Positions 15,908 to 59,019 of a stretch of DNA of 64,000 nucleotides are shown piece after piece. The position numbers and the translations under genes are program-made. Source of the stretch: Pecten maximus (lineage: Eukaryota). The stretch lies in NCBI RefSeq assembly GCF_902652985.1, contig NC_047016.1:28458001-28522000 (forward strand), in the 5' to 3' direction. The notes below the pieces were generated by a model, which was not told where the DNA came from, did not search any database, and saw only the letters and a program-made list of their open reading frames with translations. The stretch's first letter is position 1. Each line of letters begins with the position of its first letter.

Positions 15908-18809
15908 TCATCCAAATATGATCCATCCTGGGTTTGTTGTTGGAGCGGCCGAATTACTGTAAATCAATTGCATAAAATTGGATTACTGTATAAGATACGA
16001 GATTCAGTATAAATTCAATTATTAAAAAGTAGAAAAATAAGATGAATGTAACGTTAACGTACATTTTTGATTGATTACACGAATTAAATGCATAACATGA
16101 ATAAACTATTGTAAATATTACAATCTTTTGTATGTTTCTTTATCATAATTCTGCCATTTATTATGGAGTAGTTAATTAAATTGTTACTTTTGCTGGCAAA
16201 TGAAGCGTCTGTGGATGTAACAGTAATAGTCGCCCATCTGAAACCGGTATGGTCCCCAGAGGAGAAGACAGTCTTCATTAGCTCCATTGCTTGGCTCCCC
16301 CGGCCCCCAATCGGTATAGTTGAGAGGCTTTCCAATCGACGAATATTGCCACTCACTTTCTACTTCAAGGTCATTACCGTCGATCCAGTAACCATGGGCT
16401 AAATAATCGGACGAAAAAAGCTTTATTGTTTAAAATAATTTTAGGTGTTGGCCATATTTGAGTATCTCAAACATAATATACTATTTATAATCAGCGTACA
16501 TCACATGCTTCATATTTCGTTTTTTTTCTTTCTCATACTTGTGAAAATATAAAAGTGAACATATAATATACTGACTGTTTGCACTTTTTCAACTTTTTAT
16601 ACTTTTCTGTTGTTGATCTTGTGAGAATCAAGAAAATAGGACAATCTTTTATTTGCAAACACGAATCTGAAAAATGTGTCAAAAATCTGTTGTGTTGTGC
16701 ATAGAAATGAAAAAAAAGGAGAAAAAACAGTTTTTTTGCCCTTCATGAAAAGCCCATTTCATTTTTTACTCTCGATTGGTCACTCAAATCATCAGTGTGT
16801 GACCATTTTTTATTGTTGCAAATTCATTTTGCTATACAACTTTATATTGTTCAATATAATAGAAATGGTAAACGATAATTCGAAAAATTATTTTTATTTT
16901 TATTTCTGGTGTGACGTTTTAATTCTGACCACAAATGATGAAATGCAACCCAAATAATAATAGGACAAAAAAGAAGCAAAATAACCTCTTATTTTGATAT
17001 TTTTAAGAAAGATTAATTAGTTTTCTCTTGATCTGCTAAACGTTTATTAAAAATATAACATGAACTTTATATATTAAGCGTTAAATATACAAAATTTGGC
17101 GAAAAAATGAGTATTTTGCCAATAAAAACTAAGCCCTAGGGGTAACTTAAATTGCGATTTTAAGTTAAATGAATTGTTTAAAGAAATTCAACTTCCATAA
17201 TTAAAAAAAAATAATTTTGTTAGTTTTGCAAGTATCCATACATATCTGAAAACACATATAGAAGACATGGAATGGATTTGTCTTCTTCAAGGTCAAATCA
17301 GCATGAATCCACTTAAAATCACACATTATATCAAATTGGTATCTTTGAGTGGTCATAGATCGAAAACGATCACACGGACATATACTTACATTTTCTGTCA
17401 TGAATTTAATTCCCTCTACCAAATATGTATATGAGAAAATTTTAAGATGTGAATTTTTTGACATCATAGAGATGTACATGCTTAAGTGTTTTATCTTAAT
17501 GAGCATTAACATTTTGCTAAATTTCTGATTCAAAACATGGCAAACAGCTATATTAATAATATATTTACTCTTTCTAACGTGTAAATTCGTCCTTATCTAC
17601 ATGGCATGTCTTGTAAAGTATCCATGATAAGAAGGTTTATCTCTAAAGATATACGAAATCTTACCGATTGCATGTATTCCATTCAAGTATGCCTTGAGAA
17701 ACGTTTGCTCCTCTTCTGTCTGGATGGTTGCCAGGGTACTATGAAGAATTCCACATGCTTCCTACATAAGATCAAAGATACATTTAAAGCTGATTTCAAA
17801 GGATTGGAAGTGCTCTTGGTTCTTCGGTGAAATGTCTGCACATTGGATTTGTTAATGCAAATTTAGAGCTGACACATTTCTTCGATTCCACAATGTCCTT
17901 GAAAAATACTGCAAACATGTTACTTCCACTTTGATTCATGTGGTAAAATAATATCATAAGGTTTAGTGTATATTAGGTAACGATGAGTTACACACTATGT
18001 CAGCTGCCCATTATAAACTCACTTCAGCGTCAGGCCACGTTAAGACAGTGTGTGAAAACATGTAGCAAGAATTCTGGAAACTGATCCATCCATGTCTGCA
18101 ACTTCCCTGTGAGGTTGCGATAGTGGTTAAGGAACCTAGAACTGCAAACATGTTATTGTGATACTTAAGTTATTTGTAAACTGAAATCTTTCTGAGTATA
18201 TAAGGCGTATATCTCTCTGCAAGTTGAAAAATAGTAACAAATGTTATCAAGAGATATATTTGCACATCAACAATTACTAAAAAGTGTATTGTAAATTAGT
18301 TTTTACACAATGCACTCATCAATATAAACTATTAGTATAACATCACAAAATCAGAAGAAAGATTTTTTCAATTATTTTCAAAAATCATTCTCTTATCGTT
18401 TGAGATAGTATTAATTTGGACTGGTATTGATGTATCTTTTTCCTTGGAAGACAAATCTCATGGCATGCTATGGCTGTGTTTATAAGCTGACCAGTTCCAA
18501 AAGACACGAGGCTCGTAGTCAACTGAGATCGTTGTTCAACATCTGAGTGTTAAAAATTAGTTAACTAGAAAAAATAGAATATTACATTTAAGGTCTCCTA
18601 GAGAGCTAGCATAAGTCTGTCTCGAACATGATTCTAATACTGATATGCTAATGGTCACCTGTACAGAAACGTTATCTATCTTTCAAATGCCAAATATATA
18701 AGTATTTAAGCTTAAAATTAACACGTTTTAATATTGTATAAGTTTTTCTCACAACGTAAATACCTGTATACAACTGGGATACGACGAGCAATACGGTCAC
18801 TCCTGACAT
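15908..18809 (-). CDS. C-type lectin 1 (perlucin-like, secreted, single CRD; EPS/MGD)
   Basis: Exons 18809-18764 (MSGVTVLLVVSQLYT), 18141-18023 (SCRHGWISFQNSCYMFS), 17761-17665, 16398-16188 (YWIDGND..WGPGEPSNGANEDC..MGDYYC..FICQ), 15956-15908 (NSAAPTTNPGWIIFG*). All GT-AG and in phase. Confidence 0.88.
16440..17484. mobile_element. Non-autonomous DNA transposon relic in CTL1 intron 3 (related to 1455-2302)
   Basis: Shared blocks with 1455-2302. Right end gatgtacatgcTTAA. Confidence 0.45.
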
Positions 18810-19644
18810 ATTGGCACGGTTGGTTCTACTCGGTAATGTGTTCGTGTTATCTATGCGTGTTTTATCTCTACATAGACCAATATACAAGGAATTGTCGTCA
18901 AATAGCTAAAGTTTACTACCAACGTGCATTGAACTCGTCTGAGTGCATATCATCCAGAGAATCATGCCTGTGCATATGTCTAGTGGTTCCGTTGTAACCA
19001 CACTAGTTCTGATTTTTAGAATATGTTTTCAATAACTTATCTTGTCGTTTTGACAAAAATAAACCAGAAAACACTGTTTGGTGAGAATCGCATCAACAAT
19101 TCCCCAGTTTAGCAAATGGCATCAGGACGTGACTGACATGGATAACACTTAACACGCCCCCTCCCCCCCCCCCCCCCCCCCCCCCGACCCCCTTCCATGG
19201 CGGGGGAATAACAACAGCTAACGTGATGCATATAACCATAATCAGCCACAAACCTCCCGACACTTCCGCACAAAGCTAAGATAAATAGATCGATGCCCTC
19301 GCTAACGTGTTCCTATACACGACTTGACGTGAAGAACTACATAATATCACCAGCGTTCTTAGTTGTACTTTTAGAGCTTATATCTTCAGACGTTTTCAAC
19401 TGCCCGGCGGGTAGGTAATTAGAATTGTACCTGCTGCTTCCATTGCATTATTGTAACTGAATTTGGGATAGTATCTCACTCCTCTTTCCAATCAACTTCT
19501 GTCTTTTGAAAAAAAAGCTTAGGTTTTCATCGGAAAGTCTGACTTTTCTGAAAAACAAATAAGTTAATGAAATGCATAAGAAAGTACAGAAACGCTTTTC
19601 AAATGACAGGATTATTTATTATCATTTCAACACTACTGTCAGAG

Positions 19645-22158
19645 TCATCCAATAAGGCCATTTTCGAAGTCCGTTTCGACACGGAAAAGATTTTAATGTA
19701 TAAATGCAATTATGTATATAGATATGAAATTTGATTTTTACGTTTGATGTGCACCACTGCATAGAGTCACATCGTACGTTCAATATTGTCTTTAGAGGAG
19801 GGAAGCAGTACTTCGAAACTTTGATTTCTATGACATGCTTCGATAAAGAAAGAAATTCAAGGAGTTCAGGTATGGCAAACGAAGTTATAAACCTTATGCT
19901 TATCTAATAATTACATTCATTTCTTGAATTTACAAATATTAAAGACAGGTATACGATAGTCAGTATTGAAAATATAATATCAGATGCAAAATTCAGTGTA
20001 AATTCAATCTTTAAAAAGTTGAGAAAGAAGATGAATGTAACGTCAACGTATATCTTTTATTGATAGTAACATTTATATACATGTTAAATAATTACAAGAA
20101 TATATTATTGTACATATTACATTGTGTTGTCTATTTCTTTATCATAAGTGTGCCAGTTCACATGGTTTACTTAATTATATTATTACCTATGCTGACAAAT
20201 AAAGCGTTTGTTGACGTGACAGTAATAGCCGCCCATCTGAAACCGGTATAGTCCCCAGAGTCAGATTCGAAACTACGCAAACAGATATAGTCGTAGATGA
20301 AGTCAGTAGGCACAGTCCAAGAACAGCGAATTTTCAAGAGGAATAACACAGTTCCCCGAGTCATCATAAACGACATGAACACACGTCACCTTAAATCGTC
20401 AGTGCGGGGGTATCAATATTGATGTCTGTGAGCCGGAGTGTACTCATAAGAAAATGGTGTTGATATAAAAGATTTCACATACGTGTGCAGGTATGGGGTT
20501 GAACGGGTATCGCACCGGATAGACTCGGTTGTTTCCTAGGAAACGCTTATGTTTCTATCGACTGGATTTACGTTGCGATTTCAAAGATATTTCGCTCGAT
20601 ACAGATTCCATGTCTAACAAGTCAGATCAGTGTCACTAACTAAGCTGACAATTTCATCTTCAAAGAGTTTTGTCTCGTAGTTTGGAGTAAGTAAGGCCCT
20701 TGACATCAGGAAATAGCAGCAACACTAAAGACGAAAACCATGTCGATACCCCCAATTTTTTCTCAAGATCTTTTATAAAAGCTGGACTTTTAGCCTTGTC
20801 GCATCTTCCATTCCTCAGAATTCGGGAACGAGCCCCTGTGATTGTGACGACAGTACCAAATACTCGGATATGGAATACTGCACCACTTGTCATATGTTTG
20901 TGATAGCTATATTTCTTACCATACATTTTTAGCGTCATAGCCTATGAAGTTTTTTTTAGAGACGGACTAAATTCTAACAAATGTCGAAAGGTCTCTTGGC
21001 ATGTTGATACCGAAAGTAACTGAAAGCCATTATTAAGTTGTTTTAAACCTATATCCCCTGATGCTGTATTCCTGCACCGACTGAATCACTGTTAATTGCA
21101 GTATACAGTCTCATAACTACAATTCGGTTCACTAATGACATTTAGACAAATACAACACAGAATGTAGATAAATCTGAAAAAGACATCAATCACACCTGTT
21201 GCATGAAGTCCATTCAGGTATGTCTCGAGAAACGTTTGCTCTTCTTCTGTCTGGACAGTTGCTAGAGTACCATGGGTAATTTCGCACACTTCCTATAATA
21301 GGTAAAAGATACAATTCAGGCATATTTAACAAAACTGGAAATGAGCATGGAATCTGTTGAAACACGTTCATAACGATAACCGATTGTCTTAACATACAGA
21401 GGCTTTTCACGAGAGATTAGTGATGATAGCACTTTTATCAATGTCGATAACATTTATATTGACTAATTCTTTAATTGAAAAGGCGAATATGGTGAACTAA
21501 ATAAGTAAATCTAAAAATAAATGAATGAAACATTCGTATTTTTAATTGTTTCTTCAATATTCAGACTCAGTTATGTCCTTGCCTTCTGTCAAAATCTAAC
21601 CACAACTTTTTTATCAGCTTCCACTAATATCAATGAGGTAGAATGATATGTTTAGTGTGTATTGAACTTTTTGACAGATTATATTCTACGTCAGTTATCC
21701 CGATATAAACTCACCTCAGCTTCAGTCCGCGTTAAGACAGTGTGTGAAAACATGTAGCAGGAATTCTGGAAGCTGATCCATCCATGTCTACAACTTCCCT
21801 GTGAAGTCGCGATAGTGGTAAGGAGACTGAAACTACACACATGTTATTGTTTTGTAATTTGTCAACTGAGAATGGTTGTGGGTATGTTTTAAAACTATGT
21901 TTCTCTCTTCAAGTTGAAATGTTTCAGTAATGCATGCTGTCTCACACATGATTTCATTACAAAAATGACCATGGTCATATGTACATTAATTCTATCGGTC
22001 ACTTATATGCGAAATATATCAATAATTTTTACATATCCGTATTTGTACTGGAATATACTGTACACATGTTTATACTGTACAAGTTGTTCACACAACGTAT
22101 ATTGCAATGTACCTGTATACAACTGGGATACGACGAGCAATACGGCCACTCCAGACAT
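19645..22158 (-). pseudogene. C-type lectin 2, chimeric pseudogene (CTL1-type exons 1-4, CTL3-type exon 5)
   Basis: Exon 1 is 22158-22113. Exon 2 (21832-21715) is 118 nt versus 119 nt in CTL1, a frameshift. Exon 3 is 21292-21196. Only the 3' 74 nt of exon 4 remain (20260-20187, LWGLYRFQMGGYYC..FICQ). Exon 5 (19681-19645, VETDFENGLIG*) has its acceptor mutated from AG to CG. Confidence 0.85.
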
Positions 22159-23532: not shown

Positions 23533-25270
23533 TCACCCAATTAATCCGTTTTCGAAGTCCGTTTCGACACTGAAAAGATATAAATGTGTCAATTCATCTA
23601 CTCATATAGACATTTAAACTATTTACCAGTTTGGTGTGCGATTGAGAATAGAAACTTGGGTGATTTCAACGTTTTAATCTCTATGGCATACATTCTCGGG
23701 AAAAACGAAAAGCAAGGAGTTCGAGTAATCCTTCTACTTATGTTTTGAATATATTCACATCTTGAATTTGATAATTATTTAAACTGATATACGCTAATCA
23801 ATATTGAAAATATATTCATACGTTTGCTGGCATATATAGTTCCGTTTATTTGAACATGCGTTATCCCCCATCTGGAATTTACTGGCTCCCCAAAGGATCA
23901 GACAGTTTTCGTTTTCCCCCATGTTAGGTTCATGCGGTGCCCAGTCGGTGAAGGTTAGGTTCTGGCCTGTTGTCATCCATTTCCATACGTGTTCAACCTC
24001 CAAGTCTGACCCGTCCAGCCAATAATGTACCGATGATATCTTTGGATCTAAAACGTGAATGTTGATATGGGACATTGTGTAATGATACCGGTACGTACTT
24101 TTCAACGACAACAGAAATCAGTTCAAATGTTTTGTACTATAGGATAGTTGTTGAAATAAGTACGTGCATTTATTTTTAACAAATAAATCAGTATTACATA
24201 GAAATAACGGTATTTGATATTATGTTTAATTTACCGTTTTTGTGTAATTCAAGTAAATGCGTTGACAGAAAATTCTGTTCCTCAGCAGAAAGTACAGTAG
24301 CCAGTTCGGCATGGAACGCATGGCAGGTTTCCTGTACCGAAACGAATAAATCTTGAGTAAGGATATAGTATTCATTGTTGCAAAAATGTATATTTTAATG
24401 ATTCCTTCATAAGTGATGAACACAATAACATAACATCAGTATAACAATCTTACTACAAAATGCGACTTGTGAATAATAAAACTATAATTCACTAATAAAT
24501 CAATAAATTACCACTCTTAGAAATGAAAAGGGACATAACTCATGTAGACAAATTATCTCCCTTTACTTAGTTAATGTTGGTTTGCGGCGGGAGTGAAAAA
24601 GATGGCCTCGTAAGTTCCTCCATATTAAAATCTGAAGCCATAGTGATCCCTAGATTAAAGCATAACTACTGCTACTACTACTACTACTACCACTACCATT
24701 ACCACTACCACTACCACTATCACTACCACCATCACTACTACTACTACCACTACCATTACCACTACCACTACCACTATCACTACCATTACCACAACTACTA
24801 CTACTACTACTACTCTGCATACAATCGTTTTGTACTTTGAGCCACAAAATGTGTTCACATATCTTACAGATGCCTCTGACCACGTCAGCTGATTGTGAGA
24901 GAACAGGTAACACCACTCGTCGAATGTAACCCAGCCATTTCTGCAGTTTGCGACTGTAATATAAATCATATCATAAATGGAAATATACATCAATGACTAA
25001 TGCGATATGTATGATATCTTCCGTAGGCTTCATAACCACTATGAATATATAAATAAATCAAACACAGACCATGCTTAAGATAATTGAAATCGCCAAAAGT
25101 TATTAATGATTCTAAAGTAGACGTATTTTAATAAAAATCGAAAACATAAAACGATGAAAAACTTAATTAACTAAATGATGTTGCAACATTTATAGTAGCA
25201 TATGGAAAGACTACTCACATACAAAACTGGCTAAGCTATTCAGCAAGACAAAACCAAACAGGAGCTTCAT
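23533..25270 (-). CDS. C-type lectin 3 (perlucin-like; EPN/MGD)
   Basis: Exons 25270-25219 (MKLLFGFVLLNSLASFV), 24953-24868 (NCRNGWVTFDEWCYLFS), 24331-24235, 24047-23822 (YWLDGSD..WAPHEPNMGENENC..MGDNAC..YICQ), 23569-23533 (VETDFENGLIG*). Confidence 0.92.
24665..24813. repeat. Compound (ACT/ACC/ATC)n trinucleotide microsatellite in CTL3 intron 2
   Basis: Directly visible. Produces the spurious poly-Y/H, S/G and V ORFs. Confidence 0.95.
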
Positions 25271-25703: not shown

Positions 25704-25738
<35 letters not shown>

Positions 25739-28303: not shown

Positions 28304-30524
28304 TCAACCAATTATATTTTCACCAGTTTCTAAGCTGTAATGAGAAAACAAAAGCACAAGCTCAATTTCAGTAAATAGAAATTATTCCAATAAAAATATT
28401 GAAATCTGTGTTTTCTTAAAACCGTTAACGAAAACAACTAAACGGTGCCTATTTTTTGTTCTGAAGTAATTGTGATTTGTTATATAATTATCGTTTGTCG
28501 CAATCATTGCTGCACATCCATGAAAATTATACGAGAACATGTTTTTTTTTTGTCAAATATTACCTTGATTTGCAAACGTAGTTCCAACTTGCCCCACACG
28601 GGTTGTCGCCCATCTTGAAGCCCTGTACACCCCACAAAAGAAGACAGTTTTCACTCCCAGTGTTAGTAGGCTCCCCCGTGGCCCACTCCTGATAGGAGAG
28701 GAGTTCCCCTGAAGACGCCCATCGCCAAACATGTTCCACTTCTAGGTCTGTGCCGTCAATCCAATATATTACTTTTGCTGCATCTGAATGTCCGATTTAA
28801 ATATCATAAGTTAATATTTTCAAAATATCTTTATTTGTTTATCTTATTTTCTTAAATATCAATATATTTTTATTTCATATTACAAATTTGCCAATGCTTG
28901 CTTTTATACTGTGCCCGTTTCATTTTTCAATCTTACCACTGGGATGTATTTTCATAAGAGTAGTCTTAAGAAATGTATGTTCTTCGGCTGACAAAACCGT
29001 GGCCAGTGTACTGTGAAGTGCCTCGCATGTTTCCTAGGATAAATGTGTAAAACATTTAAGAAATGATTTAATAATATATGAAATAAAGCATTATCCCGTT
29101 TTTTTACTCGGTATATTGTATAAGTTTCTTATACATAGCATAGCTGATGGAGTATTTTTATTTCTGATATTTGCCTTAAAACAGCACGTTCTGACTAAAT
29201 TAAAATTGAATAGTCGCACTGGCTCAAACTATGTTTGCGAAATTAATGTCCCTTCAAGCTCATCCAGTATTTTGAATTCATTAGAATAATTTTACTTTTT
29301 TGGAAATACATGTATGTTTATTCTGATTTCTTTGTTTTTCCAAACTTTCCTTCTTTGTTGAAAACAAAAAACAACGTTTGACCCATAGCAGAATGAAGAA
29401 TGCATTCCTTAATTATTCGATAAATCCTCTTTTATTTCATATCTAAATTTAATGTACTTGGTGTTTATAAACAAGCTTATATCACTAAAATGTTTGCCTT
29501 TTTATTATATGAATGTCTGCTATCCTCACAATTAGCACAAATCAATGCACGGAGTTCTTCACAAAAATCACAGTAACATAACGTAAATACAATGTATAAT
29601 TAACCACCTGGAAACGAGGTTGACCTGTAAGGTCACCCGGTGTATACAAAATAAACTACTGGTACACAACCGGTGTATATGAAAATAAAGTATAATTTTG
29701 GTGATTACAATTTATACACATCCTATATACATTTAATAATTTAGTGTAATCGAGAATGCATCGACCAACTGAAATACAATGCAGTGAAAATGAAGGAAAT
29801 TTGATAAAATCCCATTCAAATATCATTAATTCACTTGATATAAAACATTACACAAACAAATTAATCACACCAGGATACTTAATTAGATAATTCACTTTCT
29901 TACAGTTTTCTGCCAACCCAACTATGACATGTATGTCATTGGTATGAAATTACTTACTGCAGCCTGTGGCCATGACAGAAGATTATGAGAAAAATAGTAG
30001 CAGTCTTCTTCAAATGGTAACCAGCCGTCTCTACACGGACCTGTGGCTGAAATACAGAAGCGTGTACAGTTGACGCTTCCCAACAATTTAAGTAAAGATG
30101 AATTATTTGTGTATGGAATCAGCAACCTTGTTAAGGGTAGATAACTCGATCAAAGAACGCTGTGCAGTGCTATAGCCGATAAACGTTTTCTTTAAACTTC
30201 AAAATGTAATCTTCTTTAGACAATTTTAGTAATTATGGCACATTTAAACTGCTTACGGAATAAAATTGATAACCTAACCCTAAAACTAAACTATCTTCAG
30301 AAACCAATTCGAATCATAATACAAATTGAATCGAATACAATTTCAGTACAGCCTTTTGACCTGGCATATGACATGCTGCTGGTAAGTCAGCTCTCAAATT
30401 AAAATAATCAATCAAACACATACAAGAATAGTTTAAAATATAAATAGTGAGAAGATAGTTTCATTGACCTACCTGTACAAAGGCCAGTCCAAACGAAAAC
30501 AAATAAAATAACTATCGCTTTCAT
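28304..30524 (-). CDS. C-type lectin 4 (perlucin-like; EPT/MGD)
   Basis: Exons 30524-30473 (MKAIVILFVFVWTGLCT), 30046-29958 (PCRDGWLPFEEDCYYFS), 29033-28937, 28783-28564 (YWIDGTD..WATGEPTNTGSENC..MGDNPC..YVCK), 28334-28304 (LETGENIIG*). Confidence 0.92.
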
Positions 30525-31245: not shown

Positions 31246-34187
31246 ATGATGAAGACCAGTTTGCTTTTACTTTGCTTGGTAGTGTGTTTTACACAGGGGG
31301 AAGGTATATTCTTTATATTTTATTCTATTCTTCGAAAAAGTCTTTATTTCACTCTATATACCTACTTGGACTAGAAGCGACATGTTGTATTCTTTTAAGA
31401 AATGTTAGTCTTCAGGCCAACGTTAGTATAAAGGCGAACGATAGTCTAAGGCGAATATTAGTCGAAGGCGACTGTTAGTCTAAGGCAAATATTAGTCTCA
31501 TGCGAATGTTGTTATACAGGCAAATATTAGTCTCAGGCGAATGTTGTTATACAGGCGAATATTAGTCTCATGCGAATGTTGTTATACAAACGAATATTAG
31601 TCTCAGGCGAATGTTGTTATACAGGCGAATATTAGTCTCAGGCGAATGTAAGTCTAGTTTGTAAGGTTTGCTTATCATCTCATTCCATTAAGTATTATAA
31701 GCTAAGATATGTCATTTCATATTGATCTTATTCGATGTATTTGAATGTTAGTCTAGTTTTTGTTTCCAATACCACGTACTATATTGTAGAGATAGTCTTA
31801 ACGATGGATTCAATTTTATTTGTGCAATATTTCAATGTTTCTCATGTGAATAAGTTTGTATAAATAAACAGCACAATGCCGGGATGGATGGCTAAGATTC
31901 CACGACAACTGCTACCTGTTTTCGAGAGACAGGGCACCATGGGGTGACTCAGCGGTAAATACATTTTGTATACTTAATGTAAAAATGTTTTTAAAAAACC
32001 CAACATTTGGTTAAAGAACTTTGATCTCGTACGAAATTTAAACGAATATGAAATCAGTAAATGGCTCTGCGTTGGTATATAACTTAAACGCACGTGTCTT
32101 TAGCAGAAAAGCCTAACGACTTACGTAAGTGTGCATTGTACTTCTTTTGCTTTATCTGTTAAACGCGATATATAAGTGTTTTGTAACCGATACATAGTTT
32201 GTTTAATTAATAAAATTCTTAGGTATAATTAATGAAAAGTATTTTTATTTCATTGTGCTTGAGGTATAAATTAATTAAACTTTTCGATGTGAGCCTGACA
32301 GGCGACGATCGACACGAAGGCACCGAGGACATTAACGTTAACAGATATGGTCATTATTAAGAAAACATAAATCTATTGTCAAACATGAAAAATTCGAAGT
32401 CCCGCTGTTTCGAAGTTTTTCTGTTAGTCCCTTGAACTTCGAAACATTGAAGTTTTACTGTACTACATTGCTGATATATCTTACTCTCAAGGCATTCCAC
32501 CTCCCTTACGCTTTAAATATTAAAACAAAGTGTGCTTCCTGCCATCAATACAACTTTGAATATACTCATTGTCGAATCATGCAGATGATTTACTTATCAT
32601 TACTAATTTTTTTATATGAAGTCAATATATTGAATAAGCAAAATGACTCGGTATATAACGGATTGTAATCTCACAAACGACATTCTACTTTATAACTTAA
32701 TGATTCAATTTAAAATTTCCTGAGCAATGCTGTTCTATTTTAGGCTGTATGCAATGCTTTTCATAGTCATCTTGCAATTGTGGAGTCTGCAGAAGAAAAT
32801 GCATTTCTGAAGTCGGAACTGAACCATTTGCATGGCGGTAATATTTTTGCTATATTTAAGGGTAACATAATGTAATGATATGATTATTGATATTGACATC
32901 CAATACATTCAGTATAATTATTATTGTAACCGCATAATTATGAAAGATCAAATCTTTAAACATATGAAAAATATGTGTTTGTATACATGTACATTGCGTA
33001 TACGTATGTCCATATCATCGACTTTTCTCCTAATTTCTTGTTTATTTAGGAATAGCAAAACATACATTGTAGTACTTTTCAATTAAATATATATAAAATC
33101 ACTTGGATCATAACTGCATACACAGCAATAATGCTTAGATAGGAAAGGCAATTGTTAATAAAAACAAATGATTTTGTTCGGTTTATGTTTCAAAGAAAAC
33201 AATAAATCAATTGTTACTCCTCCGCTCATTATTTTACTTTCAATTTCGTCGCACACGGATACAGATTGCATTCAATCAGCAAATCAGTTTAAAACATTTG
33301 TAGAGAAGAAACAAATATTTTGATGTGGAAACATTTATAGTGTGTTAATATACATTTTTTATCCTTAGTTCGTGTCCATCCGAAAAGTTACGAAATGAAA
33401 ACAAAATCAGTTCACGGTTAATTTGAAATAAATCCATCTGTATCACACCTTCAGGGCGTCGTGCTAGTATATCACTCCTGTACACACAATATGCCTTGAA
33501 TTGAATTTTAGGCGGGTCGTCTGCTGCGTATTGGCTTGATGGTACTGATATAGAAGTTGAGGACATATGGCGTTGGACATCTACTGGTGACAAAATTACT
33601 TACCTTAATTGGGCAGCAAACCAGCCAAACAACGGCCATGCGTCTAACTGCATGTGTCTGTATGGGGGCCTGTCATTCAATATGGCTGACGAACACTGCA
33701 GTACAAATTATAACTATATATGCGAAATGAGGTAAACAAAATTCTTAGCATTTATGCTAACTTGATCAACGTGCCATTTATTTAAAAAGACACGCTATAT
33801 TTTTAGCGGGATTTTCATTTACAGATATTTGATCGAAAACAAGAAAAAAAAATGTAACATTATGAGATATCGAAGAGTAATATATTACACAGTTAAAGTA
33901 ATATCATGTTTGCTTTGTTTTGAGACTATAGCAATATCAACGGATTTAAAAAAAAAAAAAAAAAAAAAGCCACACGTGCGAATATCGCACAAGCAAATAA
34001 CGCTTTTAAATTGCACTAGTAATTGTAAGAAGTATATCTTAAGTATATGCAATATGTAGGAGTCCGTCCTTCTGTGACTCGACCACGTTGGCAGAGAGCC
34101 TAAATGTGAGAAAGATTGGAAATGTGGTGTTAACACGATATTTAAATTCATTGCAGTGCTGTTGATGCTAGTGAAGTTCTTGGATGA
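31246..34187 (+). CDS. C-type lectin 5 (perlucin-like; QPN/MAD)
   Basis: Exons 31246-31303 (MMKTSLLLLCLVVCFTQGE), 31872-31954 (QCRDGWLRFHDNCYLFS), 32744-32837, 33512-33731 (YWLDGTD..WAANQPNNGHASNCMC..MADEHC..YICE), 34157-34187 (AVDASEVLG*). Confidence 0.9.
31400..31655. repeat. Minisatellite of 17/18-bp monomers forming a 35-bp higher-order unit, in CTL5 intron 1
   Basis: aggcgaatattagtctc alternates with aggcgaatgttgttatac. Confidence 0.9.
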
Positions 34188-36620: not shown

Positions 36621-39600
36621 ATGAAACAGTTACAAAAAATTACTGTACTTTGGATTTGTTTAATAGTTCAAGCAGTAAGAATACAAGGTAAGTGACGAAA
36701 TATTCATCTGAATAAATGGTGCATAATTATCGAGGCATCCATTTGGGACGAGATATCAACCATCAACAATTAGGGTAAAATGCCACGTATTCTAAATCTA
36801 TATCATAACATTATATTTCTGTCTATTTTTCCGGTGAATGGAATACGTCAACTAAGACAAATGTATGGGGGGAAAATCAGAAAATATTCATATATGAAAT
36901 CAGGCTAAATTTACATGCATAATAAAATGTATTCCTTTCTGTATAGGTTTCACTTCCCTGTGCCGTTTGAACATCATGATAACAGTAAAAAACAACGACA
37001 AATGATATTGTCGCTGTTAGATCTGTCCGGCCTTTCAGAATTAATAGCTAACTACAACACATGTCGATTTAAAATTATGGCAGGAAGTGCCGGATCACTT
37101 CCGATTGATAGAAAATCATATAACTAACTGTTGTTACCAATTAGTTTAATATTTAGGTTAAGAAAGATCATGTGCAACACTGATTTTCTCAAACCTCAAT
37201 TAAATATGAGTTAGACAGTAATGGAAGAAGTACACACAAATGTATATTTATTATGGAGAACGTAAGTTTAAATATATAAACTGCATGTATTTATCATGAT
37301 AAACAATGAAAGCAAAGAAAACCACATAATCCCCCTTTAAATGAATTCATTATGAACTGAAATTCTGAGGGTGATTGCCCCTTCCTATGTCACAACGTTT
37401 GTCCTTATCATTAGGGTGCAGAAACGGATGGATACAATTTGAAAACTCCTGCTACTTTTTGTCAAAAGACGCGGAGACCTGGGCTGAGGCATCGGTAAGT
37501 AATTTGAATTGCTATTGAAATCACGAAAGACAGTATGCTTCTTCTTTTATAAAGAATTTTATAAAAGAAAGAGATTTGCACTTATTATTGGTAAAAATCC
37601 TCAAAACGTATAAAACTTACTCAACTAAAAAAATGTCCATTAACGTTGGGTTGGTTTATATGTCATAACAAAGATGGCAGGTACCCACCGCGGGCGAATA
37701 GCCCTAAGTATGACTTTACTGAGAGTGCAAGGAAAGAACAAAAACTATATTGTTGTACAAAATGGGCAAGGATGGGGATCACGTCATAGTCACGTGATGA
37801 TATCCGATTAAAACAGCAAATGGCAGACACATCATCGACTATTGATTACCACTGTCATCCTGACCATATTTAAAACGTTTGGAGAGGCATTTAATTGCCA
37901 TTGTGTCATTGTCATACAAACGTTAAATTCGCCTAGTATGCTACTGTTATGATACATAAATAACACAGATTTTTAAAAATATTTTTTTAAACTTTTTGTT
38001 TCTATAATTATTTTACTTTGTCAATATCTAAGTTACATCATATTTCAGATAATTTGTGTCGATCTGCACAGTCGTTTGGCCACTGTGGAGTCAGCTGCTG
38101 AGAATAACTTCTTGAAGGCAGAAGCACATCGTTTGAATGCTGGTAATATTCATTATGTAAATATATATATAAGCAACAACCATAGATATTTGCCGACATT
38201 TACTGCCTGTTTTCTCTGTGAATACTAAATGTATTGTCCATCATGGTGTAACCACTTTCAAATTGATCCGACCTTTGACCTTTGCCACTCATGTTAACGT
38301 ACACAAAGTTAAACACATACATTCACAACGAAATTGATAATGATGTGAGATTTAACTTCACAGCAATAAAAAAATCATTGCCTTAGTTATTTTATTTCAC
38401 TTTGATACACAGGAAAGGTGTTTTGATAGCTTGCATATTAAAGATTACCATTTTTAAAAGGTAATTGCACGTTCGTTTTGGTGAAAAATAGCGAATAAAT
38501 GGTTGAATTACTACGTAATAAAAACAAAGAAGACATGATAAGTAATAGTTTTTCATTGCTCACATTTTTTTCTTTCATCACCATGAACAGAAAACGAAAC
38601 CTTTATTAATATAAGTATATGTTCTTTATCTAGGTTTCACAAGTTTTAATTCGCATCAATAAAAACAAATATATCAAAACGATTTTTGGTCAATGTTTCG
38701 TTAAGTCCATAATTTTTTTTAAGATATTAATAAGTTAAATATTTACTTTATCCCTCCCATCCGTATAGCTGTACATTTAAGATAGAGATAATGTATTGAA
38801 ATAATGAACAACCAAACCTCTGTACTTTAGTGGGATACTGGTTAGATGGCACAGACTTTGAGGTAGAAAATGTATGGCGTTGGGCAGCAAGTGGTAACAC
38901 AATCACCTATACCAACTGGGGAGGTCATGACCCAAACGAGGCAACGCATGCAAACTGCCTAGCTCTTTGGAGAGACTTTGGATATCAATGGGCTGATGAA
39001 GCATGTCGACATGTCTGGAACTTCATTTGCGAAACGAGGTATGTTATTTCTGCCTAATAATATGGATGGTCCCCTAAGTCTTAGTATGATCAGTATGTTA
39101 TAATTAATCCCGTAACAGAGTACAAGCGTTAATATGGATGAATATTGAATGCATTTATGATTATTTGAACAGTTGATGAATTAGTGCCCTGATATTATTG
39201 GTTTGCCTAGATAACTACAATAAGACAGTTCCAGTCTATTGTACTGAAAACAAATTGCTTGGATTACCTGATAAGTCAAAATCGTATGTATATGCTACTC
39301 CGAATAGTTAAATATAGGTAGCAGACTACAGTAGGAGAGGCTGGTCATGGGAGATTTTTTTATTAAGCAAATTACTCCTGTATTATGATATGCATAACAA
39401 TGGGAAAACAATCTTTATCATAATTAGTATATTCATTATCAAATAGTATATACAGGCTTCACATTTGTTTAAAAGAAATTGGTTCCGGATTATCAATTTC
39501 CGGATTTTCTAAAAGTTTGTTTATGACTCACACAACTAAATCAGCCAATCAGCTGGTGTTTTACCTCAACCAAGTCCCCGAGGAAAATGTATTTCTTAGG

Positions 39601-40570
39601 TTTGTAGCTGTTTTCCGGAATAAATAACATATGAAATGGGTACTTTCTATATACGAGAATAAAGGGTAGGGTCTTAAGATTTGAAAAGCAAAAAAATGTA
39701 CACTCCTATTGCTAATAGAATGATGAAGGATTCGAGGTGTAAAAAGGCGGGGATTCCCTAGGTGGGGGTTCCCCAGTGCACAGTAAATGTCAGAGTTACT
39801 GTCTTTCGAGTACCCGTGTGCTCTTATATGCCATTATACCTATATAATAACAGCATTCATTCGATAGAAAAAACTTCAAACTTAAATTTGATATCAATTT
39901 CACATCATTTGAGCGAATGAAGGGATGGGTCACTAGTTATAACATACAGTAAATAATTAAGTTCGGGGAGTTCTCTTTAAACCAGAAATTAAGTTTTGCC
40001 TACAGCGAAGAAAGTATGTAGCAGACAAGGTTAGATAGCAGAAATACTTAATCACGAGCAGAACAAAATTAATTCTGTATTTGGGAGATATATTTTAAAT
40101 TGATTTTAGATAATTGTGAAGGGAATTGTGTCATTCTTCGTCAAATATCATGATATTTTGCAGTTTTTAATGTTTCTAAAATGGTTACCATCGTTTTCAT
40201 AGATGTGAAAAATGTGGGGAAAAAATCCTCATCCTTCACTGCTGTATTAAAATTATAATTATTGTATAGATTACAAATATATGTACTTTGGTATATGTAA
40301 TATATCGGTCTCTGGCTATATTTACATATCTAAAACTTGTACCTGATTTTTTCAGAACTGGGCATTTTTACTGTACAATGCTACCATAATTTCACATAAT
40401 TAAGAGTAACAGCTATATGGTGGAAATACCTTTATATGTACACAATTGATTTATCCTGTTGTTTGCTGTTTATATTTCATCATTTATTTATTTATTGATG
40501 TATTCCTTTAGTTATTTATTGTCATTTCCATTTCAGTGCCACCGTGGACGGCCAGGAAGTAATTGGATAG
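36621..40570 (+). CDS. C-type lectin 6 (perlucin-like; DPN/WAD)
   Basis: Exons 36621-36687 (MKQLQKITVLWICLIVQAVRIQ), 37415-37494 (GCRNGWIQFENSCYFLS), 38049-38142, 38831-39038 (YWLDGTD..WGGHDPNEATHANC..WADEAC..FICE), 40537-40570 (ATVDGQEVIG*). Confidence 0.9.
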
Positions 40571-42915: not shown

Positions 42916-45050
42916 TTAACCAATTAGTTGGTTCCCTTCAGTATCCCTGCAATTAATAGATACAAAATAAACACCCGTAAATCTTAATATATATGTAATG
43001 CGTTACATTAGCATACATCTATCATTTGAAGCACTCTAAATAATATAATGCATGCACCATTTATTTGAAGGAAAACACAGATTGCCCACTTTGCCATTAA
43101 GCTCACATAAAATATCTTCAGTAAAACAAATTGATATCCTATAGTTCGCTACGATAATAATGTTACTGTAGTAAATATCTATTGCAATCTACTTTCGAAT
43201 AACGCATTTTGACTGGAAATAAGATTTAAGAGTTTTAACATGAATTATTTTCAATTAAAAAAAGTGAGCTTCCTCACAACTTAGAAGCTTACTTTATTTG
43301 GCACACATAGTTGTGGTGTTCTTCGCAATTATTGTCGGCGTAACGGAATTCATGTGCTCCCCACAAGTCCAAACAGTTGGCGTCTTCGGCAGCGTTAGGT
43401 TCTCCAGGAGCCCAATCCAGAAAAGAGACTTTCTCTCCATTGTTCATCCACCTCCATACGTTATCTACCTCAAAGTCGTTCCCAGCAATCCAATAAAGCT
43501 GCTGATCAGCATCTAAAGCAGAATAGCTCCACAGCATATTATTTGCAATTGAATTGCCAACAAAGGCTTACGAAAGTGTTACCGATATTTTGCAGTATCA
43601 ATGTTATAAATCATATGGTATTCAGATATTAGAAATACTGACATGTATTATAAGTTATCTTAGTATGTGCTTACCATGTCGATGTATATGTCCTAATTCA
43701 GATTTCAGATAGGTTAATTCGTCGGCTGATTCTATCCTAGCCAAGAACCCTCCGAGCATCTTGCAGACATCCTGCAACCAATATAAGAATTGCCTTTCCA
43801 TACGTTATTATTATGTATGTAAATATTTAACCAACACGTTTGTTCATATACCGGTAAAATTACTATGTCTGTAGTTTTGAGTTTCTAGGAAAACAGAAGG
43901 TAAGCTTGAAGCAAATTTAAACTTACGTTGGCCTCAACCCATGTTGCGAGTCCATGAGAAAGATAGTAACACGAGTCCAGGAAACCATACCATCCAGCTC
44001 TACACTGAGCGGCGCCTGTAAATAGACATGTTGTTTCAAGAAATGTGAAAAATAGATGTTGGAAAACATGGCAACTTACAAATTATAAAAAGTATACATA
44101 ACATGGCTGACTAGTGGTATTAAAATCCTTAGATTGATTTGAAAAACATTAATTCGATGATTCTGTAAACTGCCTTCTTAGTAAAGGTATGCGGCTGATA
44201 TTGAAGTATATGTAGTGTTCCTGATTCTACGGGGTAAATTCAAATATTTTTATTCAAATATGACACATCATCAATATATCTATAGGAGGATTCAAAGGAC
44301 ACGGCATTTTTTTCTACCGAGGACTTGATGTATCCATGTTTTGATCTATTAATTCGAGACTCGTCGAATGCAGTATTCTTTATTTGAATGCGTTATGCGA
44401 AAACAGCAAAACGAAATAAAATTTGTTTTTTTAACAGCCTGCAAGAATATAACTACTACATTAGTTATCTAGAACATGGGAAACACCACACCACGGTGGA
44501 CCGACAGTATTAACACTTTCATGTTTCACTATCTTATCTATATCTTAGACCACAATGTACAGACCGGACATCATCATGTCAGTGAAATGGTGGTAAAAAG
44601 AATGGGGTTTTTACATTCTACATGATAATATTATATCGTCATGTCATTTCATGAATATCTTAAATTCAATCGGCCCAGAAAAAGCACAACACTAGTTAGA
44701 GCTGTATATGATCTATACATTGGAACCTAAATAATCCTCGCCATCAACATTAATTATATCTAATCAGGCACTTAAAATGTGAAGTTATCTGAGTAATTAT
44801 GCATGTATGAATGTGTTCTTTAACATACAACGTCAGCAACGGTAATTGTCCTCAAAATCAGACAATAAGAAAACACATGAGGTCTTCAACATTTTTATAC
44901 ATGTCCAATGTATAATAGTAAAACATACGGACACTGAATTTACCTGTGTATAATGCCATGTTATATTACCAATAACACTATATCAATATACTTACCTGAA
45001 TAAGGAATTATCAATGTAACTGCAAAAACTAAGATATGTAGCTTATCCAT
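42916..45050 (-). CDS. C-type lectin 7 (perlucin-like; EPN/YAD)
   Basis: Exons 45050-44996 (MDKLHILVFAVTLIIPYS), 44015-43927 (QCRAGWYGFLDSCYYLS), 43771-43675, 43512-43293 (YWIAGND..WAPGEPNAAEDANC..YADNNC..YVCQ), 42946-42916 (DTEGNQLIG*). Confidence 0.92.
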
Positions 45051-48799: not shown

Positions 48800-51700
48800 T
48801 TAACCAACGATCTCGCTCAACTCTGGATCTCTGAAATGACAGAAATCACAAACATAATCAGTAAAGGTAGAAAGAAATTATATAATTGTTACATCAGTTC
48901 ACTTTTCGACGAAACATTGTGCTTTTTTCATCAGATATGATATCCTCGATAGGTATCAAGAAGCAGTGTACTATTATTTAAGACGAAACTAGCCTTAACA
49001 TATATAATATATAAACTGTTTTGTGTATTGTTGATACTTTTATTAACGTATACAAGTACATACATCTGTGCCGGCATATCCTTGGCGAGAACCCAGGACA
49101 GAGTGCCCAGGAGTGACTGGTGGTCAACTCCAGTGGTCAACTCTATCCTGGGCTCTCGCCAATGGATAGACAAGTACATAATTATGTATGTACTGGTATA
49201 CTCGTATAAGTATCAAAAATACAAAAAAAAAAACAGTAACAATATAATACTGGTACCGTGACCAGGATAGTCAACTCCCCCTCCAGGTATGATTTCAGGT
49301 TCATGAATACCTATAGATGCAATATTTCACGTTATATGGTAATCTAAACATGTCAACGGGTTTAACACTAATAACGTTAGATAGTATGAAAGAACATGAT
49401 AATGCCATGTAACCTAATGCCTAAGTCAGGTCAACGTAGTCTATAATGGTGTAATACATGTACGTCTGACCCTACTGTACAGATGACCAATAACCATGTA
49501 TTGGATAACCTTACTTCATGTCTGGTATTATTTGGTAGTCTGACTATCCATACACGTGTCTAATACTATTTCATAAGTGGACCAATATATTTATTCATTT
49601 TTTTTTTATATATATATTTTTTTTTTTTCGGTTTCGGTACACATGTCAATGGAAACCAACTGTGCCCCTCTGTTCGCCGACTTACTTTTGTTTTCATATA
49701 ACCTCGTATTGAAGAGTTTGTCAGAATAGAAACCTTACAAAATCCATCTACTTCACCTAACGAGATATTAACGATGTTTTGTCTTTATACAGCTAAACCT
49801 TAATTGACTATGGCAATCAAATTTACCCTGTAGAACTTTAATTCAAGGACACTACAGATTCTTCGACACCAACCTCAATCTTTACTTGCAATTTGAAAAG
49901 CCAGGACGGTTGTAACTAAGCAGTGATAAGTGTGATGGCTTCAATATCCAAGGTTGATGTTTTTTCCATTTCTATGTAGCCACATGCCTGCTCCCCCTAT
50001 TCACGATATATATCTTAGTTCGATATGACAGAAAAATGAACAGCACAAGGTTTCGATATATGCTTTATGCCTTGACAAATGATAGCAGTACAAATCATCA
50101 AAGGGTCGATTTAGAAAAAAAAATAAAATAAAAACAAATTCAATACTTATTGCGTACGATTCCATCATTATTGCATGCTAACGCAATACTATTTCGTGCC
50201 ATGATGTGCAATATCATTCTTGTTAGAATAGCAAAAGACAATGTTTTGTGTTAACATGCGAAGTGTTGTATAACGAAAGGATGTTTTCTCGTTTCAGGAC
50301 TTAGAGGATAACTCAAGGTCCTGTCGATGTGAGTATAGGTGATATCGTGGTGAATTCCATAATGTATTGAAACATTACCGTTCTATCTGATTTCTTGAAT
50401 AAAAAATGTGAAAGTGTAATTTGTTATCTAAATGCGACAAATACAGTAAAACGTGGTTATAACGAATCCCACAAGGTCAGAGTTATATCGGAAATTTGTT
50501 TTAAGATTTTAGATTTATAAGGATAAGCCAAATTGGGGGTTTTCAATTCACTTCATTATTAGAAGAAACTTGTATCAAGCGTGCTCATGTAAGAAAGTCT
50601 TACTCTACTATAAAATTGCTCAATCAATGTAATACCTTATTTGGCAGATGTAGTTGTAGTGTTCCTCACAATCATTGTCAGCGTATCGAAATCCACTCTT
50701 TCCCCACAAGTTCATGCAATTATCATTTTCGGCAGCGTTAGGTTCTCCGGGAGCCCATTCCGTAAATGAAATAGTCTGTCCAGTGCTTATATACTTCCAG
50801 ACATTTTCTACTTCAAGGTCGTTACCATCAATCCAATATTGTTTGCTTCCGGCATCTACAATGTAAACTTACATTTATTAGAAAATGCTACTATTATATT
50901 GGGAAAATACAAGTTTGCTCTGGAAATATAATCTATGAAGAAAATCAGGTAAGGTGAAGCATATTGTGCCATACTAGGCTACTGCACATACAAACATACG
51001 GGATAGCTAATCTATATTTAAGAAACACGTGTCTTATTAATCACTTGAACATAGACCATTCAATGGTATATGATTATGACAAATATTTATTTTCACGTGT
51101 GTAATATTCCGTGCTTACCATGCGGATGAATATGTCCTAATTCAGATTTCAGAAATGTCAGTTCATCTGCTGATTCTATCATAGCTAGATAGCCTCCGAG
51201 TGCCTTACAAAGAGCCTGTTACAAAAAAATGCGGTAGTGATTAATCATTCGTCTGGCACATTTTTTTCATTATAAAAGAGCACATTTACAAATTTGATAA
51301 TGCTTTATACCCCACTGTCAAAGATAGAATAACGCACGTTTTTTCAAGGGATACTTTTTTTTCTTTATTTGCGTTACATTACGGTTTTTAAATATACAAT
51401 TTAGAGCATTGTTTTTAATCGGTTAGGGATAGACTGTAGTCGATATATATTGTCACTATACTTACTCCAGCTTCCGCCCATGTTCCGACTCCATGGGAAA
51501 GATAGTAACATGAGTCATGGAAGCCAATCCACCCAGCTCTACACTGAGCGGCGCCTGTAAAAAGCCATACTGTTTTGTACATATTTTGTCGTTAAGGATC
51601 ATTTAAATATGACCGGTAATCAGACTGTCATGTAACAAGTAAGGTGTGGTTTAGTTGCTGGAAACACTATACATCAAAAACATGAAATTTGTTTGAAATA

Positions 51701-55900: not shown

Positions 55901-58900
55901 GCTTTATCTTGTCGGGTTTTCCATCCCATATAAATTGGTAAGTCATCTTTTCTAAAACTGCTATAGTCTTGCTATCAATTCCGATGGTGTTTACAAGAAA
56001 TGTTATCATTGGTCTGATCAGACTTTGTATTATAATAGACTTTCCGAGTAAAGTAAGTTTTCTTTTCTTCCAGTTCTTTAGTAGAAGGTCTATGCTTGTT
56101 ATTTTTTTTTTCCCAACAAAGGTTTGAGCATGTTTTACTGTTTCTGCCAAAGTAAACCCCAAGCGATTTAACCATAGTGACCCATTTGATACCTGCATGA
56201 CTTTCATCTTTATTTTTATTTCTTCCGACAAAAATCCCTTCTGTTTTATCCTTGTTCAACTTTAAGCCAGATACTTCACCAAACTCCTCCACTAACTTCA
56301 ACGCCATTTCAATGTCATTATATTTCATGAACAACGTCGTATCATCAGCTAGTTGAGATAACTTTATAACTTTTTTTCGTACTTTGACGCCATGTAACTC
56401 TTTTTCATTACGCAATGTACAAGCTAAAAGTTCTGCTGCTATTACAAACAATAAACAAGACAAAGGACAGCCTTACCTTATACCACGTGATATCTTATAA
56501 CTTCCGGTTAGCCAATTATTGTTTTTAACACTTCCTCTAATATCATTATATAACGTTTTTACCCAATTAATAAAAGATACCCCAAAACCAAACTTTTCTA
56601 AACTTTTGAACATGAAATCCCACTCAATCGTATCAAAGGCCTTAGAAAAATCTAAAAATAATATGCAGGCATCACTGTTATTTTTTTCCGAAAAGTCAAT
56701 TATGTCTTGAATTAGCCTGATATTGTAGCCAATAAACCTATTTTTTATGTAACCATTTTGATCAGTACTGATAATCTTTGACATGAGAGGTTTGATTCGA
56801 GATGCCAAAGCGTAGGCAGCTATCTTATAGTCTGTATTCAAAAGAGAAATCGGCCTCCAATTACGTAAACTTAATGGGTCATTTTTTTTATAAATCAGTG
56901 ATACAATTCCTCTTTTTTGAGAAGAACTTAATTCGCCCCTTCTATAACAGTTATTAAGGGATTCTTGTACAATTTTTCCTATTTTTCCCCAAAATGTTTT
57001 GTAGAACTCGGCAGTTAAACCATCACTTCCCGGACTTTTATTTAATTTCATATGTTTTACAGCATCTTCACATTCCTTCATGGTCAACTCTCCTTCACAA
57101 GAAGCTTTCTCTTTTTCATTAAGTACATTATCTACCTTACAATTTCCGATATAAGTGTTTATTTTGTTTTTATCAGGATTGTCGGATTGGTATAATTTTG
57201 AGTAAAACAATTCAATTTCACGAAGGATTTTTTCTGGATCTCTTTCGATTTCCCCATTATCCGATCTTAATTGTGTAATCGTGTTTTTTAATTGTCTATG
57301 TTTTTCTATGCCCAAGAAATACTTGGTATTTATTTCCCGTTTTCTACCCAATCCACCCGTGCTCTTATCTGGGCCCCTCTAGCTCGTTCTTGGTAGAGGA
57401 GGTTTAACTGATTCTCAAAATCATTAATTTTATCTTGTGTTTCTTTGCTGGGATTTTCGTCAAATTTTACAATCTCAATTGCCAATTCCCTTTCTAGACG
57501 ATTTATAATGCATAGTTTTTTCTTGCTCTTTTCTTTACAGAATTCGATAGTTTTATGTTTAATCATAACTTTACAATAATCCCATAAATCAGTTGGATTC
57601 AACTTTTCATTGCCATTAATAACATCATCAATGACTTTTTTAACAAAGTCTACATATTCGTCATTCTCTAAATAACTGTTATTGAGTTTCCAAATTCCGC
57701 TTCCCTTACCTTTTGAACTATTTTGAACAATAATATACACATAGAGATCGTTAACTTATATAAAGATTTTCCTGTACAATATATCAGAGCTTACCATATA
57801 GACCCATATATATCAACAATAAACAATACCTTTAATATGTATAATAGAAAAATTGCAAAAAACTACATTTTTTATAGTTCATTTACTAAATTCGAATAAC
57901 ATATTACCTGATGCATGTGTAACATAGATACTTTATGTTAACTTGTATGATAGAAATTTAGCCTTTATTTACTTATCATAAGCGAGCTTTTATTTCAAAT
58001 ATAAAGCTGTGCTTCATTCTTTGTTATTTTAGGCGACATGTTTGGCCCTTAATTCACATCTGGCAATGATTACCTCAGACACGGAACAATCATTCCTCAT
58101 CGATCAACTTGATCAGCTACATCAAACTGGTACCATATCGAAATGTCTAGATAATAGTTCAAGCCTATTTTCAGTCAGTTTGGTAAAAACAAAAATCTGA
58201 TTAATTATGCTAAACCTTATCAGTGTTCATAATTAAATACATATTTGAGTGATAACATCTAGATAGTTGTATTCTCTAATTATTCAAGCGTAGCATAGTT
58301 GGTGTCCGACGATGTCATAATCAAAGATTTCCAAATTTTGACAATTACTTATTTTAAATTTGTAATTGATAAGTTTTCCTTCTCCATATCAAGCAATATA
58401 TTATGGATTTTTGATAACTTGGAACTTTCAGTCTTAATATCTTTTAAACAGCTACGTTACGGAAGCTAAAGAACTGTTTGTAGATAAGTAATATATTCTT
58501 TATATCGATTGCCAGGTACCTCTCATACGCGGTACTGGATAGATGGTACAGATTTGGAAGTAGAAAATGTATGGAGATGGGCCTTAACTGGCGATAAACT
58601 TACTTACACCGCCTGGGCTGACGGTGAACCTAACAATGCACAAAGAGGCAACTGCATGAATCTGTATGAAGGAGGCGGATTTAAGATGGCAGATGATGAT
58701 TGTGAATTACGTCTGCATTATATTTGCCAGGAAAAGTAAGATGAACTTATAGATTTAAATCAATATTTTAATAAAAATGCAAAAAACTTGTTAAAAACTG
58801 TTAATTTAGTTACTTTTTATTTGTATATCATTTTGTTATGAGATCTTATAGAAATATTGCTGTCGTGAATTAAGGCAAAACATATGGATGATCATAAGTG

Positions 58901-59019
58901 TCGTGTTTCATTTAAGACACTATAGAAGTTTGATATTTAAATGTATGGTATCTTCAAACAGTTTACAAAACTTTGTTTTGTTTTTGATTTACAGTGACGG
59001 AGCGAATATCATCGGTTGA
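52939..59019 (+). CDS. C-type lectin 9 (perlucin-like; EPN/MAD), with a LINE in intron 2
   Basis: Exons 52939-52990 (MDVRILIFFVISIFANG), 53667-53752 (ACRFGWTQNGSLCYLFS), 58033-58129, 58516-58735 (YWIDGTD..WADGEPNNAQRGNC..MADDDC..YICQ), 58995-59019 (DGANIIG*). Confidence 0.88.
53885..54175. repeat. About 125-bp direct duplication (period about 167 bp) next to the assembly gap
   Basis: aagagaataattcattgatgtga...agttacaaacatggg occurs twice. Confidence 0.85.
54176..54459. other. Assembly gap (284 N)
   Basis: Run of N. Confidence 1.

Follow-up and report, generated by a model that had tools for sequence, protein, structure and literature searches.

The 64-kb stretch of the Pecten maximus genome analysed here (NCBI RefSeq assembly GCF_902652985.1, contig NC_047016.1, positions 28,458,001 to 28,522,000 of the forward strand; hereafter the window, position 1 being its first letter) carries C-type lectin genes of five exons each, numbered CTL1 to CTL9 and arrayed in a tandem cluster with members on both strands; their proteins end in a short tail closing on two hydrophobic residues, a glycine and the stop codon (the tag). 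A tenth lectin gene starts at 63.1 kb and ends beyond the window with a VIG tail. In a Pfam profile scan, seven of seven cluster proteins exceeded the PF00059 cut-off (47-59 bits against 22.6). The public proteins matching the cluster genes are named 'perlucin-like [Pecten maximus]'; XP_033732131.1 corresponds to CTL5 and XP_033732129.1 to CTL3, both single-domain RefSeq entries. Candidate sugar-site motifs (EPN, EPS, EPT, QPN or DPN, with MGD, MAD, YAD or WAD at the second site) are present, and the cluster lectins may bind sugars in a calcium-dependent manner. Their N-termini, judged by eye on the alignment, are hydrophobic, and signal peptides are predicted on this basis; residues 3-16 form a helix in the structure model.

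A reading made from the sequence alone had described nine lectins, each ending on a dedicated micro-exon that encodes the tag. All nine tails were found at the positions given, and the count of nine reduces to eight of eight intact genes, CTL2 being a broken CTL1/CTL3 chimera and no independent case. In the eight intact genes a GT donor lies exactly 8 bases past the last Cys codon of the lectin domain, which confirms the phase-2 splice. A YAG acceptor downstream, across an intron of 229-1805 nt, yields hydrophobic-hydrophobic-Gly-stop in 8/8, and the coding part spans 25-49 nt as proposed. Six-frame translation of the window gives 28 such endings, 19 of them unrelated to lectin tails, so that the motif alone is common and it is the splice context that makes the lectin tails real. 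A comparable in-phase tag exon occurred in just 18 of 520 random 2-kb stretches of the genome (3.5%), which places eight out of eight far beyond chance.

RNA contigs from four runs of three studies were compared with these junctions. Contigs with GT..AG ends bridge the last intron of CTL6 (1498 nt, 4/4 runs), CTL7 (346 nt, 4/4 runs) and CTL8 (1805 nt, 2/4 runs), and the distant tail exons claimed for CTL6 and CTL8, 1.5-1.8 kb away, are therefore joined in transcripts. For CTL1, CTL3, CTL4 and CTL5, among the matches listed, contig pieces end at the donor or within 2 bases of it, and several continue past. The tails of CTL1, CTL3, CTL4, CTL5, CTL6, CTL7 and CTL8 are already present in named public proteins, the RefSeq 'perlucin-like' lectins being the same proteins with the last exon included in their models; these models derive from the same genome and are not independent of its sequence. 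The last exon of CTL9 is a prediction, and no public P. maximus protein was found for this gene. A micro-exon is an entire exon of about 51 nt or less. Contigs extend past the stop by about 490 nt in CTL6 and about 830 nt in CTL7, and with several hundred nucleotides of untranslated region (UTR) in the same terminal exon, the tail exon is not a micro-exon but an ordinary last exon in which a short coding part precedes a long 3' UTR.

The tail is conserved at its very end. Over 28 paralogue pairs, mean identity drops from 0.48 for the domain to 0.12 for the linker, then rises to 0.54 over the last three residues and 1.0 at the last one, in agreement with the earlier claim that linkers diverge while the Gly end holds. 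All 27 hydrophobic-Gly tails among the named homologues (see below) have I, V, L or F at position -2 (I 18, V 5, L 2, F 2), and 25/27 have a hydrophobic residue at -3. Linkers measure 9 to 20 residues counted from the last Cys. They are rich in Gly and acidic, 54 D/E and 1 K/R standing among 180 residues at positions -4 to -9. In the eight intact tails the Gly codon is GGA, GGG or GGT and all three stops (TGA, TAG, TAA) are used, so the tag is not an RNA motif. In an AlphaFold2 monomer model (mean predicted local distance difference test, pLDDT, 74) the tail is coil with pLDDT of about 40, and it is predicted to be unstructured and accessible. Codon synonymy, the drift of the acidic linker and the predicted disorder together point to selection on the peptide end.

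The same model bears on the suggestion that the tail is a beta-strand docking on its own or a neighbouring lectin domain to build oligomers, the Gly being just the strand end. Ile and Val form strands, and in abalone perlucin, too, splicing shapes a C-terminal extension behind the C-type lectin domain, in this case a repeat of 10 residues that affects aggregation (PMC4019660). That extension is not a Gly tag, and no perlucin-type 10-mer repeats were found in the cluster proteins. The low-confidence coil, obtained for a single chain only, lends the docking idea no support; linker length varies, a similar tail occurs on the unrelated C1q fold (see below), and the invariant final Gly would be left unexplained. 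We regard this explanation as unlikely.

The tag reaches well beyond the cluster. We collected 30 named single-domain lectins, 7 from P. maximus and 23 from five other species belonging to Ylistrum, Argopecten, Mizuhopecten, Ostrea and Mercenaria; the sample is bivalve only, and broader searches were swamped by mannose-receptor-like proteins. Most of these homologues keep the terminal Gly: a hydrophobic-Gly end was found in 27 of the 30, including 20 of the 23 outside P. maximus and, among these, one oyster and one clam protein, and the full hydrophobic-hydrophobic-Gly end in 25. One further homologue ends in FGR, giving 28/30 that end in Gly or Gly plus Lys/Arg, and the remaining two endings are probably errors of the gene models, which would read through an intron in P0050 and shift the frame in P0057. 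An LVG end is also found on a three-domain clam lectin and an IFG end on a VWA-lectin fusion. In a control set of multi-domain lectins longer than 900 aa, the hydrophobic-Gly end was present in 3/252.

Within the genome, 100 lectin-domain end exons were drawn from 148 + 68 matches, leaving out the window genes, intronless hits, hits short of the profile end and some near copies. A +8 donor as in the cluster was present in 37 of them. Scanning these loci for a tag exon within 6 kb (at least 10 pyrimidines in the 15 bases before the acceptor) recovered the tag in frame at 16/37, where the two control frames gave 4 and 3 (Fisher p 7e-5). A stricter threshold of 11 pyrimidines left 13 in frame and 1 in each control frame. 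No in-frame excess was seen for eleven other end residues in the same 37-locus scan, and 37 loci with different donors gave 3 in frame against 1 and 1. Outside the window, the tag is carried by 16 of the 100 sampled exons on a strict count and by about 30 on a loose one. Searches made independently of the lectin domain were less productive: an atlas search with the last 24 residues reached scores of 0.76 at best, and a family-blind pattern search returned 96 Gly hits against 57 for Ala and 46 for the reversed pattern, many of them repeat copies, with no gene tied to a tail in the 40 of the 96 that were checked with 8 kb upstream. Five loci (L170, L173, L177, L182 and L189) show tail-like candidate exons, with an acidic or Gly-rich linker and the tag, and no gene identified within 8 kb upstream.

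On a quick tree of 110 exons and 68 columns, tailed exons cluster (20 changes against 32.7 when shuffled, 0/500), with at least five changes forced by well-supported branches; this tree is poorly resolved, uses looser automatic tail labels and cannot show a single origin. One old origin followed by many losses is the simplest reading of the distribution among lectins. Such clustering, together with the loss of the tail in many relatives, would also fit a functionless remnant of a shared ancestral last exon. We consider this the most improbable of the explanations weighed here, as the last Gly has stayed fixed beside a linker drifted down to 0.12 identity, the tag codons show synonymous differences, and scallops, oyster and clam all retain the tag.

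A similar end was found on another fold. Three C1q-domain genes on two contigs (L227, L241 and L245; G000:C19 at 18.13-18.14 Mb and C16 at 37.74 Mb) end, intronless, in a short linker and QPIVG-stop, and the two C19 genes carry a second C1q domain upstream. Domains of this lineage are 58-88% identical, and QPIVG-stop is kept between copies 58-62% identical, with third codon positions changed. From these sequences, such an end could have started by chance in one lineage among dozens, and its retention looks selected. A final Gly is present in 10 of 69 C1q ends; L223 closes on a GWxxFG-like stretch, as does CTL1. Three further C1q genes (L242, L348, L349), in which hydrophobic-hydrophobic-Gly follows straight on the last strand with no linker, were not counted, and a pattern search anchored on C1q returned 29 hits, with 28 for its control, and no new gene. 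Among SUEL lectins, 4/30 loci gave unverified tail candidates and no clear case. The sequences examined suggest that the tag is mainly a trait of a lectin subfamily with one independent occurrence, in C1q; it probably has a single old origin in the bivalve lectins, with many losses, and a separate one in the C1q lineage.

The tag is real, expressed and selected; it is kept across three bivalve orders and is not local to the cluster. The proposal of a selected C-terminal signal is supported by the three-order conservation, the in-frame enrichment in the genome, the synonymous codons and the recurrence on C1q. Amidation, sorting and strand oligomerisation had been put forward as its function. 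Amidation appears the most likely of the three, and it is about an even bet that peptidylglycine alpha-amidating monooxygenase (PAM) converts the tail to a hydrophobic amide read by some partner. PAM would remove the terminal Gly (-58 Da), leaving the amide, and the rare Gly-Arg or Gly-Lys ends would first be trimmed by a carboxypeptidase-B-like enzyme to give the same product.

All that PAM demands of its substrate is a Gly at the C-terminus, and CPE and CPD take off terminal Lys/Arg (PMC6313938). The enzyme is active throughout the secretory pathway (PMC6313938, PMC3652174), it binds better where the penultimate residue is hydrophobic, and Chinese hamster ovary (CHO) cells amidate large Fc fusions (PMC4482046). 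Given this literature, an exposed Gly on a secreted lectin would be a likely PAM substrate. Amidated peptide families, including Iamide and Vamide, are widespread in molluscs (PMC6425005), and the oyster big defensins Cg-BigDef1/5, which are folded bivalve defence proteins, are given as amidated via Gly loss (PMC9786018); like the Fc-peptide fusions (PMC4482046), they are Gly-extended substrates of the secretory pathway. The lectin tails share with neuropeptide PAM substrates a predicted secretory route, the terminal Gly, sometimes followed by Arg or Lys, and a hydrophobic residue before it. They differ in that the Gly ends a folded domain of 140 residues, encoded with its own exon in a large gene family and with no upstream dibasic site, and in that their amidation is a proposal. 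A basic cleavage site as in neuropeptide precursors was not found, the linker having a single K/R in its 180 positions, and with a linker nearly without basic residues the tag would stay attached to the lectin rather than be released as a peptide. Extended endings with a tail-like linker are only G-R or G-K (P0060, L089 and L041), which weakly fits trimming followed by amidation; in the 37-locus scan, Gly-Lys/Arg ends were found in frame twice, against 0 and 0. Since PAM needs only the Gly, with at most a preference for a hydrophobic residue just ahead of it, the conserved hydrophobic residue at -3 is left unexplained, and the tag would have a second reader, which could be a sorting receptor, a matrix or mucus partner or a surface receptor.

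The same excess of conservation is the starting point of the main rival to amidation, in which the carboxyl end is recognised as it stands, as a free hydrophobic-hydrophobic-Gly, by a lumenal receptor for cargo or granule sorting or by an extracellular partner; any amidation would then be incidental or serve for release. Conservation covers three positions although PAM needs just one, Ile and Val are strongly favoured at -2, a like end occurs on the C1q lineage, and an acidic flexible spacer precedes the tag. Against it, Gly-Arg/Lys ends would have to be trimmed before a free Gly is on offer, PAM is known to act on Gly ends that lie exposed in the secretory pathway (PMC6313938), and no receptor candidate was found; we keep this explanation as a tentative one. 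A further explanation turns to protein quality control, with the tail acting as a glycine C-degron that clears lectins failing to enter the endoplasmic reticulum (ER). The CRL2 degrons read by KLHDC2, KLHDC3 and APPBP2 are likewise short Gly-ending motifs on secreted proteins. C-degron pathways dispose of secreted proteins that end up in the wrong compartment, and secreted proteins show no depletion of terminal Gly (PMC8013793). The CRL2 degrons act in the cytosol, however, and need diGly or an upstream Arg, neither of which the lectin tails have; the motifs described (diGly, RxxG and xRxGx, PMC8013793) fit none of the tails, nor do those of bioRxiv 10.1101/2023.08.13.553125. With Arg almost absent and both the Ile/Val pair and the dedicated exon unexplained, a degron is very unlikely. 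A possible likeness of the FG and FGR ends to Atg8-type ends was set aside, the lectins having hydrophobic leaders.

Several observations weigh against amidation of a conserved tag. Transcripts that stop at exon 4 without ever taking in the tail exons had been named beforehand as a refutation; transcripts without the tag were seen singly, as one CTL3 contig retaining intron 4 and one CTL8 contig spliced to an acceptor at 49996, and tail-exon joins are present for CTL6, CTL7 and CTL8. In the main fork of the tree, within the same lectin clade, 23/55 rows are without the tag. Amidation by PAM in cells worked better on an Arg-Gly end than on a Tyr-Gly one (PMC4482046), so that hydrophobicity is not required for amidation. 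The G-K/G-R signal is weak (p 0.11), Gly plus a non-basic residue giving 3 against 2 and 2, and the tails of L089 and L041 are predictions, L041 having two other candidate exons. Outside the lectins the tag is rare: it is present in 3/69 C1q ends, all of one lineage, and was found in 0/50 fibrinogen-like ends and in 0/11 ependymin loci, only three of which reach the end. The best candidate for a PAM exon matched PHM only at E 9e-5, and amidation of these lectins, which would need PAM in the same cells, is proposed from sequence. In limpet shell peptides (one file of 12), 0/81 IIG, VIG, IVG, LIG or VVG hits fell at a peptide end, which is uninformative as amides were not searched. The P. maximus genome shows an expansion of copper type II monooxygenases (32 and 39 exon matches, with clusters on C2, C9 and C18); the first such exon tested as PHM matched dopamine beta-hydroxylase instead. 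Two copper monooxygenase genes lie 70-95 kb before the window (G000:C2:28362402-28389964).

The broadest interpretation is that bivalves mark folded, secreted defence proteins from structurally unrelated families (C-type lectins, C1q proteins and probably more) with hydrophobic-hydrophobic-Gly-stop as a portable address tag. The tag would sit on an acidic, flexible linker, amidation would switch it, and a dedicated receptor, as yet undescribed, would recognise it and direct the proteins to granules, mucus or shell matrix. This we consider rather doubtful.

Coordinates of the exons and remnants of the lectin cluster discussed in the text (positions in the window)
Feature	Position	Strand	Evidence
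CTL1 last exon, coding part with stop, IFG*	15908..15956	-	named protein P0053; equal-depth RNA contig covers 15876
CTL1 exon 4, lectin domain end, phase-2 donor at 16188	16188..16398	-	RNA contig piece ends at donor
CTL2 dead copy of CTL3 tail exon, LIG*	19645..19681	-	acceptor is CG at 19683-19682
CTL2 exon-4 remnant, last third, CTL1-like, front two-thirds missing	20186..20260	-	tblastn and sequence
CTL3 last exon, coding part, LIG*	23533..23569	-	named protein P0321
CTL3 exon 4, donor at 23822	23822..24047	-	RNA contigs, one with intron 4 kept
CTL4 last exon, coding part, IIG*	28304..28334	-	named protein P0041
CTL4 exon 4, donor at 28564	28564..28783	-	splice scan and RNA contigs
CTL5 exon 4, donor at 33731	33511..33731	+	splice scan and RNA contigs
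CTL5 last exon, coding part, VLG*	34157..34187	+	P0040 decides between two acceptors
CTL6 exon 4, donor at 39038	38830..39038	+	RNA contigs
CTL6 last exon, coding part, VIG*; UTR to at least 41061	40537..40570	+	junction bridged in 4/4 runs; P0048
CTL7 last exon, coding part, LIG*; UTR to at least 42084	42916..42946	-	junction bridged in 4/4 runs; P0037
CTL7 exon 4, donor at 43293	43293..43512	-	RNA contigs
CTL8 last exon, coding part, IVG*	48800..48830	-	junction bridged in 2/4 runs; P0028
CTL8 alternative acceptor in intron 4, tail without tag	49970..49996	-	one contig, one run, 27 letters on short side
CTL8 exon 4, donor at 50636	50636..50855	-	RNA contigs
CTL9 exon 4, donor at 58735	58517..58735	+	sequence prediction
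CTL9 last exon, coding part, IIG*, predicted	58995..59019	+	orthologues P0042 and P0046 end in IIG and VIG

In CTL2 (19645-22160, minus), exons 1-3 and the exon-4 remnant are CTL1-like, and the tail and the last part of intron 4 are CTL3-like; by sequence comparison it is a broken chimera of the two genes. RNA depth was zero over 19005-20286 in the four runs, which is weak evidence. One RNA contig links an exon 1 placed in CTL2 to exon 2 of CTL1, probably through mis-placement between paralogues. A second, truncated 3' end of CTL1 lies before the window (L035:2220-3498, about 28450200-28451500 of G000:C2); it consists of the last third of exon 4 and the IFG tail, and its DNA is 83-86% identical to CTL1. 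The donors of CTL1, CTL7 and CTL9 exon 4 read AA/GTAA (the stroke marking the splice), and an unspliced transcript would stop right after the domain, at Lys; a clean tag-less lectin form through intron retention is possible in these three genes. The cluster is flanked by a single-exon AMP-binding enzyme (PF00501, E 1e-52) at 12915-14669 on the plus strand. Intron 2 of CTL9 holds, beside a stretch of Ns, pieces in several frames (54690-57755, minus) that we take from their motifs to be reverse transcriptase like that of long interspersed nuclear elements (LINEs).

No description of the tag was found in the literature searched, including a 2025 review of bivalve C-type lectins (PMC12842671) and a survey of the family's genes (PMC10140915); one could still stand in papers behind subscription, in figures or in supplements. 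The lectin tag is older and wider than the reading from sequence alone could show and is apparently undescribed, though the exons are in public models.

Bivalve C-type lectins form a very large family, mostly studied as bacterial recombinants and often with C-terminal tags. Lectins made in bacteria would lack the amide, and an added C-terminal tag would block the end of the tail. If a sizeable part of the family is amidated, or sorted by way of the tag, published lectin activities may be those of an immature form, and amidation would no longer be a matter of peptides but would take in folded immune proteins at the scale of a whole family, with the tag serving as a sequence marker for where these lectins go.

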